A stretch of DNA of 64,000 bases from Pseudomonadota bacterium (GCA_029777855.1 JAKORL010000179.1:1356-65355); one strand, 5' to 3'. Shown: positions 7,156 through 51,441, numbered from the stretch's first letter. Notes: generated from the letters alone by a model not told the origin. A program made the numbers and translations.

Positions 7156-9291
7156 TTATTTATTCAAATTTTCCGGTTGAGCGCATGATTCTGAGGTTAT
7201 CGCATACGCATGATTATGTCTCTTTTCGCTCGAAGATACGTGAAAACCTTGTTGGGTCATCAAAGTACCTTGCGCTGATTCAGCGTGTTTAATTTGTAAA
7301 TACCTGTCTGCAAAGGTTTTCGCAATAGGGAGATGGCTTTGTTGCGATGTTTCACAAAATAGTTGATAAAAGACAATTTTTAAGACCCTATTTATAGAGA
7401 TTGTCTCCGTTTTGCAGGATGCCACAACGATGCCAGACTTTAATAATTCAGTTAACTGTTCTTGGATTGGCTCATTGGGTAGTGATTTTCTTAATATCGT
7501 TAAATCGAGCGTTTCAAAGTTTGGAATTAATATACAAACTGATAATAGTGTTTTTGCTTGTGGTGACAGTCTGGAGAATATGGATTTAAGTACGCCATGT
7601 AAAGTGGCGCTTATAGGTTGATATAATTCATGTTCGTTGTTTTTTTCTAATTTATAGGGGTCATTTGAAAATAGTTTTGTTGAATATATCTTGTCTGGTG
7701 AATTGGTTAAGAGTGAGAGATACGAAGGAATTGTTTTGTTATTGTTCAGTATATAAGCAAGTGCTTGTGATAGCATCAGTGGATATCGTCCACATGTAGT
7801 GGCTAATTCTTTAATATCATGAGTCGAATATTGAGATTGGGGTTTTTTATTTTCTAGGAAACTACTGATATATCTAACCGCAGTCTCAAGTAAGAAATTA
7901 TCTAATAATAATAGATCAAATTGCTCACGCCATTCTGCTGATAAAGAATTTCGCGTCGTTAACAGTACGCTAAAACATTCATTATTGGGTGGCATAAAGG
8001 GCGATAGTTGTGATGGGCCATGAACATTGTCGAATACGATTAGGCATTTTCCGCGAAAGCCTAATTTTTCGTAAACGTATTGATAGACTTCATTATCACT
8101 TGTTGCGCGTACAGTATCCATTTCGAGTGAATTGGCGAGTTTGATAAATTGGCGCCGCAACAACTTTGGAGTATCTTCAGGATTTTCAGAGCCAGCTAAC
8201 ATCCAAATTACGTTTTTAAAATTTTTACTGGCTTCAGTCAGGTCTTCGTCCGTAATCATTTTTAGGTACATAGCAACGAGTTGAGTTTTTCCTATGCCCG
8301 GGAACCCTGTGATGCATACCCCCAATTTTTTATTTTGCAACGTGTTATTTAGCATGGTGTCAATTTGAGAAAGCTCAATCTGCCTACCAGTAAAAAAGTG
8401 ACTGACACGAGGTAGTTGAAAACTCCCATGAAAAGCAACATGTGTTGGTGGTAATCCTTGTCTTTCTTTCAGTAAAATTTTGCGGCAAACAGACTCCAGA
8501 TGCCTCTCTTTGTGTAGATATGACAATCTTGCGTCAGTACAGTTGATACTAATGCATTGTTTAAAAAACAGTTTTACTTTGGGTATGTGGTCTTCTAATT
8601 TCTCGGGCGTTAGTGAATGAGGGAATTGTTCCTTAAACGATGACCATAACTTGTTATACTCATGGCTGGGGTGTTTTTGAAAATAAATATCGCTTAATAA
8701 ATTTTGTAGTTGTGCAAGGTACTCTCCAGCGCACCAATCAATAACTTCTATATTCTCGAAAATGGATATAAAACTGTCGACTATTGCACCTATTAATATG
8801 ATGGGTAAAACTCGGTGTTGAGATGTAAGAGTATCTCGATGCTGTTTAGAAATAGTATTTGCCATAACTATTTTTTCAGGATTCCAATAGGGATCCTCAT
8901 GTTTTGAACGTAGTGAAGGTGTGCCAAACAGTAGGACAAAGTCAGTATCATTTGCCATAGAAGAAAAAGAGTAAATATCGTCGGTATCACGGTAGTTAAT
9001 AAGATCTAAAATTGGGTATATGCCAGCAAGTTTTAAATGAGCGTGGAGATTAATTAAGAATGGTTGCACCAATGATTCAGTTTCAGAATTACTCTCTATT
9101 GGCCAAGCATAGCTCATGTAACATCTGTAACCAGGTTTAGGAACGCCTTTTAGACGAGCGATATTTATCAGTAGCTCCTCAAAAGAGGATTTCATTTTCT
9201 CATTCATCATGAGACAAGCTTGTTGATACATCGTAATCGATATGTCAGAGAACTTTATATTCATGGCAATGACTCCTTGATATAACTTCAA
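7156..9291 (-). CDS. STAND NTPase: SEFIR/TIR-like N-terminal domain plus NB-ARC ATPase, with no C-terminal repeats. Paralog of 3362..7078.
   Basis: 711 aa. Motifs: P-loop GFPGIGKTQL, Walker B CLIVFDNV, VLLTTRN, GRYPLMLSQALAYI. The N-terminus carries YRCYMSYAWPIE...FVLLFGTPSLRSKHEDPYW...RVLPIILIG. Confidence 0.7.
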   Translation of the reverse strand: MKLYQGVIAMNIKFSDISITMYQQACLMMNEKMKSSFEELLINIARLKGVPKPGYRCYMSYAWPIESNSETESLVQPFLINLHAHLKLAGIYPILDLINYRDTDDIYSFSSMANDTDFVLLFGTPSLRSKHEDPYWNPEKIVMANTISKQHRDTLTSQHRVLPIILIGAIVDSFISIFENIEVIDWCAGEYLAQLQNLLSDIYFQKHPSHEYNKLWSSFKEQFPHSLTPEKLEDHIPKVKLFFKQCISINCTDARLSYLHKERHLESVCRKILLKERQGLPPTHVAFHGSFQLPRVSHFFTGRQIELSQIDTMLNNTLQNKKLGVCITGFPGIGKTQLVAMYLKMITDEDLTEASKNFKNVIWMLAGSENPEDTPKLLRRQFIKLANSLEMDTVRATSDNEVYQYVYEKLGFRGKCLIVFDNVHGPSQLSPFMPPNNECFSVLLTTRNSLSAEWREQFDLLLLDNFLLETAVRYISSFLENKKPQSQYSTHDIKELATTCGRYPLMLSQALAYILNNNKTIPSYLSLLTNSPDKIYSTKLFSNDPYKLEKNNEHELYQPISATLHGVLKSIFSRLSPQAKTLLSVCILIPNFETLDLTILRKSLPNEPIQEQLTELLKSGIVVASCKTETISINRVLKIVFYQLFCETSQQSHLPIAKTFADRYLQIKHAESAQGTLMTQQGFHVSSSEKRHNHAYAITSESCAQPENLNK

Positions 9292-9470
9292 ATTCCCGGG
9301 CCGAATATCTGTGTTAAAATTTCAACATATAGTTAGCATCTTATGCAAGTTACTTGCTATTATGAAAATAGTCAAATTACTTTTCTTGTGGGCATATATG
9401 TGGTATGTAATTATCATGCTTGTATATAATTTTGGGTAATCAATGGATTTTTGATAAGAAGGTAGAGAAA

Positions 9471-43173: not shown

Positions 43174-45054
43174 ATGGATTTTAATAAGACATTTGATGTG
43201 ATTGTAGTAGGCGGTGGGCATGCGGGAACCGAGGCGGCGCTGGCGGCTGCTAGGATGGGAGCTCAAACACTGTTGTTGAGTCATAATATAGAGACGCTGG
43301 GCCAAATGTCGTGTAATCCCGCCATCGGGGGGATAGGTAAGGGGCACTTGGTCAAAGAGATTGATGCGCTGGGCGGGATTATGGCTCGTGCAATTGATCA
43401 AGCGGGCATTCAGTTTCGTATCTTAAATGCCAGTAAGGGGCCCGCAGTTCGGGCTACACGCGCCCAAGCTGACCGAGTACTCTACAAGCAAGCCATTCGC
43501 CATGCGCTCGAGAATCAGCCTAACTTAACGCTGTTTCAACAGGCTGTTGAAGATCTCATTATTGCCAATGGTCGTGTTAGTGGTGTTGTCACCCAGATGG
43601 GATTGAATTTTTACACCAAGACGGTTGTGCTGACTGCGGGTACTTTTCTGGGTGGCAAGATTCACATCGGGCTATCCAATTATCGTGGAGGACGCGCCGG
43701 AGATCCACCGGCATTGGCATTAGCTGAACGGTTGCGAGCCCTACCCTTTCGTGTTGATCGCTTAAAAACAGGGACTCCCCCGCGCATTGACGGGCGTACC
43801 ATTGATTATTCAGAATTACAAGAACAGCCCGGTGATACTCCAACGCCAGTATTTTCTTATCTAGGTAATGCAAAAGAACACCCTACCCAGGTAAGTTGTT
43901 TTATTACTCATACAAACGCAAAAACACACGAAATAATTCGCACAGGATTTGAGCGCTCTCCCCTTTTTACAGGAATTATTGAAGGTACAGGTCCACGATA
44001 CTGCCCATCAATCGAAGACAAAGTGGTGAGATTTGCAGAAAGAGACTCGCATCAAATTTTTATTGAACCTGAAGGCCTTACTACGCACGAAATTTATCCG
44101 AACGGAATTTCTACGAGTCTCCCCTTTGATGTGCAAATGGCTTTTGTACGTAGCATGAAGGGTTTTTCAAATGCGCATATCACGAGACCTGGTTATGCTA
44201 TTGAGTACGATTATTTTGATCCGCGCGATTTGCACCCTTGGTTGGAAACGAAATTAATGCCGGGGCTATTTTTTGCTGGACAAATTAACGGCACTACAGG
44301 TTATGAAGAAGCCGCAGCTCAAGGATTAATTGCGGGTTTAAATGCTGCACGTGTTGCTCAAAATTGCTCAACTTGGTACCCAACGCGTGATCAAGCTTAT
44401 ATGGGTGTTTTAATTGATGATTTGATTACATGCGGTACGACAGAACCTTATCGTATGTTCACATCGCGAGCAGAATATCGGTTATTACTGCGAGAAGATA
44501 ATGCTGATTTACGATTAACCACTATCGGTCGAGATCTTGGCCTTGTTGATGATGAGCGATGGAATGCATTTACTTCTAAAAAAACTAAAATCGAAGAATT
44601 ACAAGAACGACTCAATAAATTTTTAGTTCGCCCAAATTCAGAAATCGCAACTCGGTTTCAGGAACGATTTAATACACCTCTAGAACGAGAATATTTTGCT
44701 GTTGAATTGTTACGTAGGCCAGAAGTCACTTTAGATGGCTTAATGGAAATTCTAAATGATTCAACTGAACTCTCTCCTACTGTAAAAGAACAAGTTGAAA
44801 TTCACAATAAATATGAGGGCTATATCAAACGTCAGCAAGAAGAAATCGATCGGCAAAAACGTCACGAAGAAACAGTGTTATCACATCATTTTGACTATGA
44901 AATTGTGAGTGGGTTATCAACGGAAGTGAAACAAAAACTCAAATCTGTCCGCCCCACTACTCTTGGACAAGCAGCTCGAATTCCAGGTGTAACACCTGCA
45001 GCGATTTCATTATTGTTAGTGCATATTAAAAAAGGTGTTCATACAAGTTGTTAG
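43174..45054 (+). CDS. mnmG: tRNA uridine 5-carboxymethylaminomethyl modification enzyme MnmG (GidA)
   Basis: FAD-binding [14 protein letters not shown]. Full-length conservation over 626 aa. Confidence 0.95.
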
Positions 45055-45092: not shown

Positions 45093-47105
45093 TTGATTAT
45101 GCATAATCACCATAATGCGGAGCATCACATGAATCACCTTCAAATGGGGCATGGATGCCACGCCGGAATGGCAGGTGATTTTAAAAAACGTTTTTGGATC
45201 TCGATAGTCTTAACAATACCCGTCTTAATTCTGTCGCCTATAGTTCAAAAATTTATTTTATTAGGGAAGACATTTGCTTTTAACGGAGACAGCTCAGTTG
45301 TTTTTGTTTTATCTACTGTGATTTATTTTTATGGTGGTTGGCCATTTCTCAAAGGTTTTTATGATGAATTGATTGAGCACAAGCCTGGCATGATGGTTTT
45401 GATTGCCGTAGCCATTTCGGTAGCATACTTTTATAGCACAATGATTGTTTTTGGTCTTTCAGGCATGTCATTTTTTTGGGAGCTTGCAACATTAATAGAT
45501 ATTATGTTGTTGGGGCATTGGATTGAAATGAAATCAGTTATGGGTGCAGGTACTGCCCTTGAAAAGCTGGTGCGATTATTGCCAGCGGTTGCCCATAAAA
45601 TAATGCCTGACAGTACGATCAAAGATGTGCTTTTGAGTCAATTAACGATGGGTGATCATGTCTTGATCAAGCCAGGAGAAAAAATTCCTGGGGATGGGAT
45701 TGTGTTAGAAGGTAAAACAAGTGTTAACGAATCGATGCTAACAGGCGAGTCTCGGCCGGTTGCAAAACTAGTTGGTGCCCAGGTCATCGGTGGTTCTATT
45801 AATGGGGAAGGTGCAATCACAATTGAGATAAAAAAAATCGGCATGGGTTCTTTTCTTTCGCAAGTGATCGAACTCGTGAGACAAGCTCAAGAGAGTAAAT
45901 CAAAAACACAAGATTTGGCTAATCGCGCCGCCAAGTGGCTTACTTTAATTGCTTTGGGTGGAGGTGCTTTAACATTACTGATATGGATATTATTACAGCA
46001 ATCATTTTCTTTTGCTTTAGAGCGTACAGTCACTGTGATGGTGATTACCTGTCCTCATGCGCTTGGTTTGGCTGTTCCTCTAGTTGTTGCTATATCAACT
46101 GCGATTGCTGCTTCGCATGGTTTGTTAATACGAAATCGTTCCGCATTTGAAACCGCGCGTAATATCGATGCAATTGTATTTGATAAAACAGGGACATTAA
46201 CAGAAGGAAAATTTGGCATAACCGATGTATTGATTTTCGATAAAAATTTAAATCAAGATGAATTGGTGAATTATGCTGCGGCAGTTGAGGCGAATTCTGA
46301 GCATTCAATAGCAAAAGGAATTGTGAATTCAAAGAAAAGCGTACTTAAAGTCGAAAATTTTAGAGCCATACCTGGAAAAGGAGCTCAAGGAAATGTCGAT
46401 AATAAAGAAGTTAAAATTGTTAGCCCGGGATATCTACGTGATGAAAATATACATTTAAATAAAGAAGATGAAACGCATATTATCAATTTAAGTCAGCAAG
46501 GAAAAACAGTTGTATTTGTCATGATAGATAATGAATTAAAAGGCGCAATTGCACTGGCTGATATTATTCGGCCAGAATCAATGGAAGCAATTAAACAACT
46601 AAAGTCAATGAATATCCGCTGTATAATGTTAACTGGGGATAATAAGCAAGTGGCTAAATGGGTTGCTGAATCATTGGGGCTTGATGAGTATTTCGCAGAA
46701 GTGCTTCCTCAAGATAAAGTCAATAAAATAAAAGAAGTTCAGGGGAGAGGATTGATTGTCGGAATGACTGGCGATGGTGTAAACGATGCACCCGCTTTAG
46801 CACAAGCCAATGTGGGGATTGCAATTGGTGCAGGTACAGATGTCGCTATTGAGACAGCTGATATCATATTGGTTAAAAGCAATCCACTGGATGTTGTTGC
46901 GATCATCACACTTGCTCGAGCCACAACCCGTAAAATGATTCAAAATCTTCTATGGGCAACAGGATATAATGTCATCACTATACCTGTAGCAGCAGGTGTA
47001 TTGTTTCATTATGGTATTGTACTATCACCAGCAGTCGGGGCTGTTTTAATGTCTCTTAGTACAGTTATAGTGGCGATTAATGCTAAAATGCTCCGTTTAG
47101 CATGA
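45093..47105 (+). CDS. P1B-type heavy-metal-translocating ATPase (CPH-type, CopB-like) with His-rich N-terminus
   Basis: N-terminus HNHHNAEHHMNHLQMGHGCH. TM6 CPH motif. DKTGTLT. TGDN. GDGVNDAP. Confidence 0.9.
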   Translation: MIMHNHHNAEHHMNHLQMGHGCHAGMAGDFKKRFWISIVLTIPVLILSPIVQKFILLGKTFAFNGDSSVVFVLSTVIYFYGGWPFLKGFYDELIEHKPGMMVLIAVAISVAYFYSTMIVFGLSGMSFFWELATLIDIMLLGHWIEMKSVMGAGTALEKLVRLLPAVAHKIMPDSTIKDVLLSQLTMGDHVLIKPGEKIPGDGIVLEGKTSVNESMLTGESRPVAKLVGAQVIGGSINGEGAITIEIKKIGMGSFLSQVIELVRQAQESKSKTQDLANRAAKWLTLIALGGGALTLLIWILLQQSFSFALERTVTVMVITCPHALGLAVPLVVAISTAIAASHGLLIRNRSAFETARNIDAIVFDKTGTLTEGKFGITDVLIFDKNLNQDELVNYAAAVEANSEHSIAKGIVNSKKSVLKVENFRAIPGKGAQGNVDNKEVKIVSPGYLRDENIHLNKEDETHIINLSQQGKTVVFVMIDNELKGAIALADIIRPESMEAIKQLKSMNIRCIMLTGDNKQVAKWVAESLGLDEYFAEVLPQDKVNKIKEVQGRGLIVGMTGDGVNDAPALAQANVGIAIGAGTDVAIETADIILVKSNPLDVVAIITLARATTRKMIQNLLWATGYNVITIPVAAGVLFHYGIVLSPAVGAVLMSLSTVIVAINAKMLRLA

Positions 47106-47124
47106 TAGTATAGGGTTATGCTAT

Positions 47125-49449
47125 ATGAAACACTGGAAGTTTATGAATTTAAAAGTTCGATTATTTGCCTGCCTTGTGCTTACATTAACTATTTTCACTC
47201 AAAATGCATTTGCTGCCGATCGGATCATCGATTTAGTAGTAGGATATAAAAAAGTAAATTTCGCTGGAAAAGAAAGGTTGGCTATGTCCGTGAACAATGA
47301 GATACCAGCGCCAACATTAAAATTTAAGCAAGGAGATCATGTTCAAATTAATGTCTATAATCATCTCGATAAAGAAACCGCTATCCATTGGCATGGCATT
47401 ATTCTACCATGGCAGATGGACGGAGTCTTAGGCGTTAGTCAACAAGGAATTCCTCCAGGGGGCGTTTTCCATTATCGATTTACACTGAATCAAGCGGGGA
47501 CTTATTGGTATCACGCACACGCCGGATTGCAAGAGCAAGAAGGGTTGTATGGCGCTTTTGTTATCGACCCTCGGACGCCCAGCCAATATCATGCAGACAA
47601 GGATTTTGCCGTAGTATTATCTGATTGGAGTAATACGCCTTCAGATCAAATTCTGGCTAATCTAAAAAAATCAGGCGATTACTACGAATCTCTATTTCCT
47701 TTGCAGCCATCTTTAATAAAATTTTTGCATGATTATCAATGCGCTTCAAAAAAAGAAAAAGAAATGCTGTTATCAGATTATAACATGATGCAACAAATGC
47801 GAATGAGTGTTTATGATTACAGTGACGTAGCGTACGATGCTTATTTGCTGAATGGGCATACAAAGTTTTCTCCCTGGACAGCACCTGTTAAAGTTGGTGA
47901 TATTGTACGATTGAGATTTGTTGGTGCTGCGGGTAGCACCATTTATCGCGTTAAAATACCAGAATCTAAAATGAGGGTTATTCACGTGCAAGGTAATGAT
48001 GTGAAACCATACGAGATAAATGATTTCACAATCGCACCAGGCGAAACTGTGGACGTCTTAGTAAAAATTCAAAAAAAAACCCCTACTATAATTTATGCTG
48101 AATCGAATGATACACGAGGTTCAGCTATTGGAGCATTAATAACCGACACTAATAAAAAAATTAATATTAGCTCGGTTCAGCCATTCAAAGAGCCTTTGCC
48201 TATTTCACGAACCATGATGAAAACAATGATGGAAGGTATGTCACATAATATGCCTATGGATATGCCCACTGAGTCGACAATTGTGGGTGATGAAATGTCC
48301 CGAAAAAGTGTTTCATCTAAAACAACTCACAATACTCAGTATGAAAAAGTAGTCGCCAAAGAGAAAACAAACGATCCTTATAAACCCATAGACAGAGTGA
48401 TAAAAATGGAATTATTCGGTTATATGGATCGATTTATTTGGTTTATTAATGGTGTTCCCGAGTTTAATGCTAAACCTATTGTTTTTGAGCCTGGAAAGCG
48501 ATATCGATTCATCTTTATTAACACTTCCATGATGAGCCATCCCATGCATTTTCATGGACATTGGTTCATTTTCAGAAATGGTCATGGCGAATATGATCCG
48601 TTGTTACACACTATTAATATTCCACCCGGCGCTACTGTTGCTGCAGATGTTGATGCAGATGTGAGTGGTCAGTGGCTATTTCATTGTCATTTGCTTTATC
48701 ATATGATGAGCGGAATGGCACGTGTATTTCAGTATTCAACGTTACTTGATGTTGTAAAGCATAAAAATACACCACAAAAAAGTATCATAAGTTCTCATTA
48801 TATCAACCGACCAATAGTGCATGTTGATGAAATTCGACCTATTAATATTGATCAAGTGAATCATCCAATGCCACATTTAATGAAAACCAGTTTTTCGACA
48901 AATTTAGATGTGGGTGTGAATCCCTTACGCAAGGTGCAAAAATGGGGTTTAAAAGGCCTCTATGGATCTGATTATCACAAACTCGAATTATATACTAATG
49001 ATGCTGAAATTAATAATGGGAAGATAGAAAATGCGGATATCGATTTATTTTATTGGCATTTAATCTATCAATTTTGGGCCATAAAAGGAGGCTTGAATTA
49101 TACGATTAAACCGACAAATACCCCTTATCTTCAAATGGGAATAGGTATAGAAGGAATGATGCCCTATTTTATCGGAACCGATTTGAGAGCATATTATCAT
49201 TCGGGGGTGTTAAAAATTGATTTTGAATTATCTCGAGATACTCAACTGACTAACAATTTTTTCTTACGCACCGCAGTACGAACTATCTTAGAATCGGGAC
49301 TCGATCAGGTGCGATATATTATCCGGCCATATTATCGCTTGAAACCTGGAATTGATATATTTGTCGAATATGAACATGAAAAGGATTATGGCCATTCATC
49401 TGCCAAGTCAACTTTAACCGGCGGTGTATCTTTTGGTGTCGCATCTTGA
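47125..49449 (+). CDS. Multicopper oxidase (CopA-type) fused to a C-terminal CopB-like copper-resistance outer-membrane domain
   Basis: Signal peptide. MCO motifs HWHGIILP and HCHLLYHMMSGM. Met-rich segment MMKTMMEGMSHNMPMDMP. The C-terminal ~230 aa resemble the CopB family (FYWHLIYQFWAIKGGLNY...GGVSFGVAS). Confidence 0.7.
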   Translation: MKHWKFMNLKVRLFACLVLTLTIFTQNAFAADRIIDLVVGYKKVNFAGKERLAMSVNNEIPAPTLKFKQGDHVQINVYNHLDKETAIHWHGIILPWQMDGVLGVSQQGIPPGGVFHYRFTLNQAGTYWYHAHAGLQEQEGLYGAFVIDPRTPSQYHADKDFAVVLSDWSNTPSDQILANLKKSGDYYESLFPLQPSLIKFLHDYQCASKKEKEMLLSDYNMMQQMRMSVYDYSDVAYDAYLLNGHTKFSPWTAPVKVGDIVRLRFVGAAGSTIYRVKIPESKMRVIHVQGNDVKPYEINDFTIAPGETVDVLVKIQKKTPTIIYAESNDTRGSAIGALITDTNKKINISSVQPFKEPLPISRTMMKTMMEGMSHNMPMDMPTESTIVGDEMSRKSVSSKTTHNTQYEKVVAKEKTNDPYKPIDRVIKMELFGYMDRFIWFINGVPEFNAKPIVFEPGKRYRFIFINTSMMSHPMHFHGHWFIFRNGHGEYDPLLHTINIPPGATVAADVDADVSGQWLFHCHLLYHMMSGMARVFQYSTLLDVVKHKNTPQKSIISSHYINRPIVHVDEIRPINIDQVNHPMPHLMKTSFSTNLDVGVNPLRKVQKWGLKGLYGSDYHKLELYTNDAEINNGKIENADIDLFYWHLIYQFWAIKGGLNYTIKPTNTPYLQMGIGIEGMMPYFIGTDLRAYYHSGVLKIDFELSRDTQLTNNFFLRTAVRTILESGLDQVRYIIRPYYRLKPGIDIFVEYEHEKDYGHSSAKSTLTGGVSFGVAS

Positions 49450-50508: not shown

Positions 50509-50648
50509 TGATTATTACCAGTGTCATAGTGATCTTCAAAACGACTGTCCGTGGACAGGCATCTATGGAGAAACACGATAGCACTGATTCTTCACATAGA
50601 TCTAGTCTCTTGAATATAGGATTGATCAAATGATAGTCTTGAGGGTCT

Positions 50649-50738
50649 GGAGAGGTGTCCGAGTGGTTTAAGGAGCACGCCTGGAAAGTGTGTGTACGGT
50701 AAAACGTACCGAGGGTTCGAATCCCTCTCTCTCCGCCA
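50649..50738 (+). tRNA. tRNA-Ser (anticodon GGA), long variable arm, CCA encoded
   Basis: GGAGAGGTGTCCGAGTGGTTTAAGGAGCACGCCTGGAAAGTGTGT...GGGTTCGAATCCCTCTCTCTCCGCCA. D-arm GAGTGGTT, anticodon loop CTGGAAA, long extra arm, T-loop GTTCGAATC. Confidence 0.85.
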
Positions 50739-50777
50739 TTTAGCAAGAACGAAGCGAGCCCGAAGGGTGAAGACCAG

Positions 50778-50866
50778 GAGGGTCTGAATAATCCTCTCTC
50801 TCCATAGTGAATAACAACATTTGTTGTTGTTTTATTAGGTGGCGAGGAGAGGGTGCGAACCCGCTC
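50778..50866. repeat. tRNA-Ser-derived fragments. One is a direct copy of the tRNA 5-prime flank and 3-prime end with the middle deleted (50778-50803). The other is an inverted, degenerate copy of the T-arm and acceptor end (50840-50866).
   Basis: gagggtctg...tcctctctctcc mirrors the flank and 3-prime end of the intact tRNA. TGGCGAGGAGAGGGTGCGAACCC resembles the reverse complement of GGGTTCGAATCCCTCTCTCTCCGCCA. Confidence 0.4.
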
Positions 50867-50994
50867 AAAATCTACCCAACATGTCTGTTTCTAATAAAGA
50901 TCTTGCTGTTTTTATTTTGAAAGATCGTGGATTTTACAGAACATCTAACAACTAAAGATGCGACGACGAGGAAGGACGACGACAAGGAGAAGTT

Positions 50995-51441
50995 ATGCGC
51001 GTTTTGCTGCAAAGAGTAAAGCAGGCTCGGGTCACTGTAGATTCGAAAATAATCGGTGACATCGGGTCTGGCTTGTTGCTATTGATTGGCATTAGTCATG
51101 ATGATAACGAGGTCTGTGTTGATCAAATGGCTGAGAAAATTGTGAATTTGAGAATTTTCGAAGATGAGAATGAAAAAATGAATCTTTCTGCGTTGGATGT
51201 AGAAGCAGAAATTTTGGTAGTATCCCAGTTTACATTGTATGCCGACACAAGTAATGGTCGCCGACCGGGCTTTAGTCTTGCTGCGAAACCGGAGTATGCT
51301 GAACCTTTGATTCATTATTGGGTTAATGCATTACACAAGCTGGGAATTACAAAAGTGGCCACAGGTGAATTTGGTGCCCATATGGAAGTGGAGTTAGTCA
51401 ATGATGGGCCAGTGACCATTATGTTGGAAAGTGATGTTTGA
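50995..51441 (+). CDS. dtd: D-aminoacyl-tRNA deacylase
   Basis: MRVLLQRV...ARV. GLLLLIGISHDD. The conserved SQFTL motif and the C-terminal MEVELVNDGPVT. Confidence 0.9.
   Translation: MRVLLQRVKQARVTVDSKIIGDIGSGLLLLIGISHDDNEVCVDQMAEKIVNLRIFEDENEKMNLSALDVEAEILVVSQFTLYADTSNGRRPGFSLAAKPEYAEPLIHYWVNALHKLGITKVATGEFGAHMEVELVNDGPVTIMLESDV

Follow-up and report, generated by a model that had tools for sequence, protein, structure and literature searches.

The DNA analyzed here is a 64,000-nucleotide window from a Pseudomonadota genome (GCA_029777855.1) with a low G+C content of about 37%. All of its nearer relatives are uncultured Gammaproteobacteria, and the closest named MnmG proteins among the matches listed, those of Pseudomonas and Kaarinaea, are ~72-73% identical. 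ARAGORN and Rfam placed a single tRNA in the whole 64 kb, a tRNA-Ser(GGA) gene with an encoded CCA at 50649-50738 on the plus strand (52.1 bits against the Rfam tRNA model). On its 5' side lie gidA, a P-type ATPase gene, a multicopper oxidase fused to CopB and an APH-family kinase gene on the minus strand, and on its 3' side follow dtd, a 103-aa ORF, an Rv2179c-like exoribonuclease gene and four large tandem paralogs, in agreement with the copper genes, APH-like kinase and large paralog array described in the initial annotation. The origin-proximal gene region is rearranged in that yidC, mnmE and gidA are present and gidB and parAB do not come after gidA. Downstream the locus is bounded by dtd, the gene for D-aminoacyl-tRNA deacylase, at 50995-51441 on the plus strand (Pfam Tyr_Deacylase, E = 2.5e-57).

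The tRNA itself is 100% identical in sequence at three related loci, L001, L085 and L094. Directly 5' of the gene, GATGATAGTCTT is kept in the window and in all three, in a 5' flank of which the remainder is ~65% identical, and from this conservation we place a probable extended -10 promoter element of the tRNA transcript, TGATAGTCT, at 50631-50639 on the plus strand; a consensus promoter scan made no call at these positions.

Between the tRNA and dtd lies a gap of 256 nt that contains two stretches aligning with the tRNA 3' end. The direct fragment, GAGGGTCTGAATAATCCTCTCTCTCC at 50778-50803, aligns to tRNA positions 63-86, which comprise the T arm and the 3' strand of the acceptor stem. The inverted fragment, at 50840-50862 and extending to 50866, gives GGGTTCGCACCCTCTCCTCGCCA as its reverse complement and resembles tRNA positions 65-90 including the CCA. 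The direct tRNA 3'-end repeats are spaced 67 nt from start to start with no ORF in between. Each fragment reaches a local alignment score of 26 against the tRNA, as compared with a top score of 21 in the rest of the 64-kb window (986 tile-strands). When the intergenic region was shuffled with its dinucleotides preserved, a score of 26 was reached in 4 of 3000 shuffles for either fragment and in none of 3000 for both strands together. The scores and shuffles thus indicate a resemblance to the tRNA that exceeds low-complexity chance. The direct and inverted fragments that the initial annotation had reported downstream of an intact tRNA-Ser(GGA) are therefore real, and their alignment confirms its statement that they come from the 3' end of the tRNA.

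Orthologous loci in related genomes were located through homologs of Dtd and MnmG. Two contigs, L081 and L082, belong to the same species as the window and have an identical arrangement, with one SNP in the inverted fragment of L082. L084 represents a sister lineage whose dtd is 96% identical to that of the window at the nucleotide level; here the tRNA end is followed directly by TTTAG, a hairpin and the inverted fragment, and an interval of precisely 67 nt, the one carrying the direct fragment, is absent, and with it the segment that we call B'. The complete structure is present in L085, whose dtd is 76% identical to that of the window. In this locus the tRNA is followed by block A1, a 101-nt module B ending in GGTCTGAATAATCCTCTCTCTCCGCCA, block A2, crcB and dtd, such that crcB sits between the tRNA and dtd. 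Block A1 is made up of TTTAG, a 19-bp perfect hairpin, TAAATG and the inverted fragment, and it is identical to A2 at 65 of 66 positions, giving 1.5 units with a 167-nt period. The L085 unit starts at 9284, directly after the tRNA, and the duplicated block extends 66 nt past the tRNA end. Neither block is found in L001, where the ~4 kb after GCCA hold RibD_C, three GNAT genes and a 330-aa ORF, or in L094, where RhuM and a GNAT gene come straight after GCCA. The initial annotation had proposed comparing the flanks of this tRNA among relatives, and the 67-nt absence in L084, crcB in L085, the ~4 kb in L001 and RhuM/GNAT in L094 bear out that they are variable. Further downstream, the order of dtd, the 103-aa ORF and the exoribonuclease gene is kept in L001 and in L083/L084, and in L085/L086 three other genes separate the 103-aa ORF from the exoribonuclease gene. 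Overall, three lineages of this clade carry the element. Their array sizes differ: L084 has 0.4 unit, in the window 0.4 unit follows a truncated one, and L085, the only lineage with an intact unit, reaches 1.5.

The segment shared between the window and L085 is conserved well beyond its surroundings. Window positions 50752-50803 and L085 positions 9394-9446 are identical at 51 of 53 sites (96%; blastn-short E = 1.8e-18), as against 75.6% identity in dtd, 80% in gidA and 50-55% at third codon positions, and, in noncoding sequence, 66% in the tRNA 5' flank and 50% in the spacer hairpin. Conservation of the inverted fragment amounts to 80-86% in L082, L083/L084 and L085, where it reads GGG(A)TGAGAACC and departs from the tRNA by the change of ATTCGAA to ATGAGAA.

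The same layout recurs in E. coli. The serX gene is a tRNA-Ser(GGA) gene followed by three tandem 181-nt units arranged as in L085, each with a terminator hairpin, the inverted arm GGGGGGATGAGAAGCCCC, GGGGTTCGAC, a core and AATCCCCCCCTCACCGCCA, the hairpin being a canonical terminator. The repeats at tyrT/tyrV measure about 178 nt from CCA to CCA, and these tyrT-type units have arms and core as in the serX and clade units and a spacer without a hairpin. No RtT-type units follow serW, the other Ser(GGA) gene of E. coli. The Rfam RtT model (RF00391) aligns over its whole length to L085 9315-9450, ending exactly on CCA, with 29.4 bits and E = 4.8e-4 to 8.7e-4 (the lower value from a 247-nt search), and the window scores 13.4 bits (E = 9.3); both values are under the gathering score of 45. 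For comparison, the E. coli K-12 tyrT/tyrV copies score 133-137 bits and the serX copies 46.3 bits in two of three units.

We also built a covariance model from seven E. coli copies only and scanned 183 kb of clade sequence with it. Its single significant match in these 183 kb was L085 9320-9450 (21.7 bits, E ~1e-3), and with filters off the truncated unit of the window gave no significant match to this E. coli-only model (2.6 bits). As the model misses the window unit, the link between the window and RtT rests on the pairwise test and on the 96% match to L085. In the pairwise test, in which unit alignments were scored against dinucleotide shuffles, the L085 unit matched a tyrV unit with z = 9.1, a serX unit with z = 8.4 and the tyrT-tyrV spacer unit with z = 7.9, the observed score being reached in 0 of 2000 shuffles each time. 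The similarity of L085 to the tyrV unit persisted when both tRNA-derived arms were cut out (z = 4.8, 0 of 2000 shuffles) and fell to a modest core-only similarity when GGTTCGAC was removed along with the arms (z = 2.9, 27 of 3000 shuffles). Segment B' of the window (50739-50803) aligned to the tyrT-tyrV spacer unit with a score of 126 against 63.1 +/- 10.0 in shuffles (z = 6.3, 0 of 2000). A blastn search of the L085 unit against E. coli genomes returned no match, which is due to the 11-nt word requirement and not to absent homology.

Individual motifs and their order lead to the same family. In 1.6 Mb of compared sequence, CCCGAAGGGYGAAG is confined to the E. coli RtT copies, L085, the window and the same-species contig L081, and CTGARTAATCC occurs, over the same 1.6 Mb, in the three RtT copies downstream of tyrV, L085, the window and the same-species contigs, plus one stray match. 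The conserved internal core of RtT (CCCGAAGGGYGA..., then CTGARTAATCC or a close variant) is present in the window. In the tyrT-type units of E. coli and in this clade alike, similarity to the local tRNA begins at AATCC, and the L085 unit ends in AATCC-TCTCTCTCCGCCA, a direct copy of the tRNA 3' end with its CCA. At the other end of the unit, the 5' arm reads GGGATGAGAACC in L085 and GGGTGAGAACC in L084 and L082, compared with the RtT arm motif GGATGAGAA, and the E. coli 5' arms, GGATGAGAAGC, share the ATTCGAA to ATGAGAA change with the arms of this clade. A small hairpin occupies the same place in the core with a different sequence in each case (GCGCgcaGCGC in E. coli, GACCAaggaTGGTC in L085 and GACCaggagGGTC in the window). 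The shared arm change, the common start at AATCC and the hairpin position fit common descent and not the independent decay of tRNA copies. In addition, the L085, serX and tyrV units have a predicted closing stem that pairs the 5' arm with the 3' arm (z = -2.9 to -3.4).

With these comparisons the parts of the locus in the window can be assigned, all on the plus strand. The L085 and E. coli matches identify 50739-50803 as the RtT-type unit B', which has lost its 5' part and keeps the junction, the core and the 3' arm. Within it, the RtT core motif CCCGAAGGGTGAAG is found as an exact motif at 50759-50772, and 50784-50803 carry the CTGAATAATCC motif and the 3' arm, which repeats the acceptor 3' strand of the tRNA in direct orientation and corresponds to the direct fragment, with an exact CTGARTAATCC at 50784-50794. 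The 3' arm reads AATCCTCTCTCTCC without the final GCCA, the next letters being ATAG; that of L085 retains CCTCTCTCTCCGCCA. There follows at 50810-50837 an inverted repeat forming an A+T-only spacer hairpin, AATAACAACA/TGTTGTTGTT, with a T-rich tail (hairpin proper 50810-50831). It occupies the unit-start position, as in L085, L084 and E. coli serX, and the hairpins in the same place in L084 and L085 are of different sequence (50% identity). A terminator scan did not accept 50810-50837, an A+T-only hairpin that fails the G+C rule. As B' lies between the CCA and this first hairpin, it is expected to be within the tRNA primary transcript. The 5' arm, at 50840-50866, is an inverted copy of the tRNA 3' end and corresponds to the inverted fragment. 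It reads GGGTGCGAACC and is part of the next, incomplete unit rather than of the unit that bears the 3' arm; in predicted folds it pairs with that 3' arm (50790-50803). The content of the window is accordingly one truncated unit and the first 63 nt of another (50804-50866).

This assignment bears on a further claim of the initial annotation, which saw in the direct fragment a collapsed tRNA in which the 5' flank was joined to the 3' end. The match behind that claim is exact, as the 9-mer GAGGGTCTG occurs both at 50641-50649 in the tRNA 5' flank and at 50778-50786. We set aside the joining of 5' flank to 3' end in favor of the RtT 3' motif: the same stretch also aligns with the T arm of the tRNA (GAGGGTTCGAAT vs GAGGGTCTGAAT), the 9-mer is not kept in L085, where the counterpart is GGATGGTCTGAATAATCC and the tRNA 5' flank is GAGGGTCCTG, and this position is occupied by CTGAGTAATCC or CGAATAATCC in the RtT copies of E. 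coli. The 9-mer in common with the tRNA 5' flank is best treated as a coincidence layered on the RtT motif CTGAATAATCC.

Taken together, comparisons at the sequence level establish both the homology and the anatomy of the RtT-type unit, and the locus belongs to the known RtT family, as a divergent member that is partly deleted, next to the same tRNA species as serX. The two fragments are probably the remains of a short tandem array of RtT-type units directly downstream of tRNA-Ser(GGA). The initial annotation had attributed them instead to integrases, an account that we now regard as improbable. In it, a tRNA-targeting tyrosine integrase would have used the tRNA-Ser(GGA) 3' end to insert an island, or several; the direct fragment would be the displaced 3' end (attR), the 40-nt spacer the last remnant of an island and the inverted fragment the product of another event. 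Such an account is consistent with a direct repeat that, like att duplications, spans the T loop to the acceptor end, with the absence from L084 of exactly the interval between the repeats, and with the unrelated cargo that begins directly at GCCA in L001 and L094, which in L094 includes a RhuM-family gene; moreover, serW and serX are known island integration sites in E. coli. However, Pfam searches found no integrase or recombinase domain in 30 ORFs of the window (within 1-1407, 9420-10385, 18451-19809 and 23734-63983, a scan that left out ten ORFs of at least 90 aa in 1546-23682, on the 5' side of the tRNA) and no integrase in the 10 L001 ORFs from gidA to the exoribonuclease gene, and there is none among the called genes of L085 and L094, so that the search for integrase genes further out, which the initial annotation had recommended, came back empty over these genes. 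The repeats enclose no cargo. What does lie between them is a module of 53 nt with 96% identity across lineages in which dtd has 76%, and it is homologous to the core of E. coli RtT. The inverted fragment is conserved in three lineages with the RtT-specific TGAGAA change, and both fragments are defined arms of a unit that is complete in L085 and is seen after E. coli tyrT/tyrV and serX. The duplicated block of L085, reaching 66 nt beyond the tRNA end, is unexpected for an att core. Searched with blastn, 50,697 phage records gave no match to the L085 unit, and exact 20-23-nt motifs had none in viral or metagenome contigs (the neighboring 103-aa ORF, used as a query, likewise had no match in the metagenome contigs). 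In the sequence compared, the inserts of L001 and L094 lack any repeat of the tRNA 3' end. As for the copper genes, they lie on the 5' side of the tRNA, which is not where integrases that target the 3' end put their cargo.

A still less probable account makes the fragments a decayed tandem duplicate of the tRNA-Ser, its 5' two-thirds mutated away, with the inverted piece as the remnant of a convergent third copy. Both fragments do derive from the tRNA 3' end, the L085 unit holds a further T-arm-like GGGGTTCGAC, and the L085 module is tRNA-like at its ends, with GGAG first and CCTCTCTCTCCGCCA last. Yet the similarity to the tRNA ends sharply at AATCC, the neighboring non-tRNA core has the highest conservation (96%) and matches CCCGAAGGGYGAAG of E. 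coli RtT, which is no part of the local tRNA-Ser, and neither the Rfam tRNA model nor ARAGORN finds a second tRNA or pseudo-tRNA. The likelihood that the fragments are a chance resemblance of short, low-complexity C+T-rich strings, the outcome that the initial annotation had itself named as refuting its proposal, is vanishingly small: the acceptor 3' strand CTCTCTCTCC is indeed low in complexity, but the fragments outscore everything else in the 64 kb, no shuffle matches the scores of both at once, and they are conserved at the same position in relatives. An inversion between the inverted tRNA copies was also considered and rejected. The idea was prompted by an APH-like ORF of L001 that lies between the tRNA and dtd on the plus strand, the APH gene of the window lying upstream on the minus strand. 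None of the L001 ORFs compared with the kinase of the window is its ortholog (E = 0.003 to 0.07); the ortholog, in L085 (64% identity), is also 5' of the tRNA on the opposite strand.

The RtT-type array that we favor has the following organization, and we propose a history for it. In an intact unit, as at serX and in this clade, the CCA is followed by the spacer hairpin, the inverted 5' arm, GGTTCGAC, the core and the 3' arm, the core running from CCCGAAGGGYGAAG through the small hairpin to CTGARTAATCC and the 3' arm consisting of the last 15-19 nt of the neighboring tRNA with NCCA. From the first unit of the window the hairpin, the 5' arm, the leading half of the core and the terminal GCCA are missing, which leaves 50739-50803, and the direct fragment is the last 14-26 nt of this remnant; the second unit is reduced to its hairpin and 5' arm (50804-50866). 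Unequal recombination or slippage between the copies of the tRNA 3' end may expand and shrink such arrays, as tandem repeats with 15-80-nt identities can be expected to vary in number with no need of a site-specific recombinase. Gain and loss between repeats would explain both the 67-nt absence in L084 and the 1.5 units of L085. The closeness of L084 to the window (dtd 96%) suggests that both deletions are probably recent. By analogy with E. coli, a unit would be transcribed behind the tRNA, its arms would pair as an acceptor-stem-like helix with a 3' CCA tail, and the enzymes that process tRNA ends could then release it, as is reported for E. coli rtT RNA; the resemblance of paired arms and a 3' NCCA tail to an acceptor stem would account for processing by tRNA-maturation enzymes. 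The copy in the window appears to be a recent remnant, probably non-functional and probably of little consequence for the organism, and a recent loss would leave the core of the remnant still conserved from selection that acted while the unit was whole.

The broader implications are of different strength. A tentative idea, to which we give rather less than even weight, is that RtT-type units are an ancient selected module kept at tRNA-Ser(GGA) and other tRNAs from Enterobacterales to this probably host-associated lineage, with the core under purifying selection and the arms re-copied from the local tRNA. If this were true, the re-copying of arms would imply active templating or recombination, possibly with excision and amplification of units via the tRNA-end repeats, and not passive decay. 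More directly, copies of a tRNA 3' end beside a tRNA gene are usually taken as integrase footprints; as those described here are RtT-type arms, they are unfit for drawing island boundaries. The locus also extends a poorly understood element, expressed in E. coli as RtT/rttR, to a distant gammaproteobacterial lineage, and it could be of use in comparative work on RtT in that the tRNA species is the one found at serX, the arms track the local tRNA, and a 53-nt core is 96% identical where genes are at ~76%.

Among known systems, the attL/attR pair of an integrated element is alike in that an intact tRNA has its 3' end repeated, in direct orientation, farther downstream, that the interval between the repeats is missing in a close relative, and that neighboring genes vary. 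It is unlike this locus in that we find here no integrase, cargo or phage match, that a conserved noncoding module lies between the repeats, and that an att site has no use for the conserved inverted copy. The first origin of RtT repeats may nonetheless lie in an ancient recombinase-mediated event. A second parallel is provided by the 3' external transcribed spacers of tRNAs, which yield small RNAs such as 3'ETS-leuZ of E. coli, as the position of B', after the CCA and before the first hairpin, puts it putatively inside the tRNA primary transcript. A third is the Xanthomonas small RNA sX4 (Rfam RF02223), the consensus of which includes a tRNA-Ser with the same acceptor stem, GGAGAGG, and has a GGGGGGUGAGA arm ~55 nt downstream that pairs with the T-stem strand of the tRNA. 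The matches to sX4 are weak (30.7 bits for the window and 28.6 for L085, against a gathering score of 70) and mostly tRNA-driven, and the sX4 paper describes no link to a tRNA (PMC3300014).

The closest counterpart is RtT RNA itself. Processing is reported to release RtT RNAs from the transcripts of tyrT and many other E. coli tRNA operons, and members of the family to adjoin tRNA-Asn and tRNA-Lys genes in Pasteurellaceae (PMC4986893). A link to the stringent response has been proposed for RtT, for which the same paper cites Bosl and Kersten 1991, and a preprint on the product of E. coli rttR agrees with its account (10.1101/2024.07.17.603846). The units described here differ from the E. coli family in scoring below the gathering threshold of 45 (29.4 bits for L085 and 13.4 for the window) and in their host, an uncultured low-G+C gammaproteobacterium with a distant MnmG. 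The window copy differs further in its truncation, which leaves a unit without its own 5' arm and terminal GCCA, and in a spacer hairpin of A and T only. A small protein was considered as a product, as E. coli RtT contains the tpr ORF, and was rejected: there is no tpr-like or conserved ORF, translation from the ATG in the L085 arm would end at a stop four codons on, and the two sequences, window and L085, differ by a frame-shifting 1-nt indel. As for the likenesses, in the window (from 50739), in L085 and in E. coli the unit adjoins the 3' end of a tRNA gene of the same orientation and starts at the CCA; in L085 as in E. coli, it closes with the final 15-19 nt of the local tRNA, CCA included, its 5' arm is an inverted tRNA end with ATGAGAA for ATTCGAA, and GGTTCGAC, CCCGAAGGGYGAAG and CTGARTAATCC follow in identical order; and serX, where the units are likewise hairpin-first, is also a tRNA-Ser(GGA) gene.

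In the window's clade, gidB, parA and parB do not lie behind gidA, the gene encoding MnmG, and their place is taken by variable cargo, the tRNA-Ser and dtd; in the next-closest lineages, whose MnmG proteins are 88-90% identical, gidA is followed by gidB, parA and parB (loci: window 43174-45054 and relatives L095-L098). The window carries between gidA and the tRNA a copper block at 45093-49449, which encodes a P-type ATPase (670 aa) and a 774-aa fusion of a multicopper oxidase with a CopB-like C-terminus. Among the orthologous loci of relatives, the gidA-tRNA interval of L001 and L085 lacks the copper genes, L094 has the oxidase-CopB gene with the ATPase absent, and both genes are present in L099 of the sister lineage. 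Beside the copper genes of L099, the place of the APH kinase is taken by a toxin-antitoxin pair made up of DarT and a Macro-domain (DarG-like) protein (10762-12576). The dtd leader motif AACATCTAACAACTAAAGATGCGACGACG (window 50940-50968) recurs in inverted orientation at the end of the L099 contig, which suggests that it is a regulatory motif present in more than one copy or that it marks the breakpoint of a rearrangement.

Unrelated cargo is also found directly behind the tRNA in two relatives, beginning in both cases from the GCCA of the tRNA onward. In L094 (19561-21869) it consists of a RhuM-family gene and a GNAT gene, and in L001 (5909-9893) of RibD_C, three GNAT genes and a 330-aa ORF. 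The sequence examined around it in L094 and L001 contains neither an integrase nor a second copy of the tRNA end.

Four tandem large paralogs of 1298, 900, 840 and 773 aa occupy the minus strand of the window at 52495-63983. Three of the four share 54-64% identity across the N-terminal ~570 aa, and none of the four has a Pfam match. Members of this family in relatives occupy different positions, and one in L085 (4150-8913, minus strand) is located 5' of the tRNA. The window additionally encodes a Ras-like small GTPase (37549-38154), a gene type better known from eukaryotes.

A collapsed mini-helix similar to the window's junction of the tRNA end with B', the 5'-truncated RtT-type unit, lies ~150 nt upstream of dtd in the L092 locus (1-300). 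It consists of GGAGGTGG, 20 nt and then AACCTCCGCCATTAAGCAAAAAC, and ahead of it lie two ~60-nt direct repeats (ATCGATAATAG...TTTCTTATCACCAC).

Behind serX, a tRNA-Ser(GGA) gene of E. coli K-12, stand three tandem RtT-type units of 181 nt each (L104, the serX locus at NC_000913.3 1096500-1098700, minus strand 1065 to 523), every one of which starts with a copy of the serX tRNA's terminator hairpin; no feature is annotated at their site in the NC_000913.3 record, and serW, the second E. coli Ser(GGA) gene, is without such units. Weak matches to the Xanthomonas small RNA sX4 of Rfam were obtained at window 50638-50847 and L085 9182-9341. The sX4 model consensus is itself a tRNA-Ser, with an acceptor stem identical to that of the window, followed downstream by a GGGGGGUGAGA arm that pairs with the tRNA T-stem strand, and this tRNA-then-inverted-arm layout in Xanthomonas may be the same as that in the window and L085.
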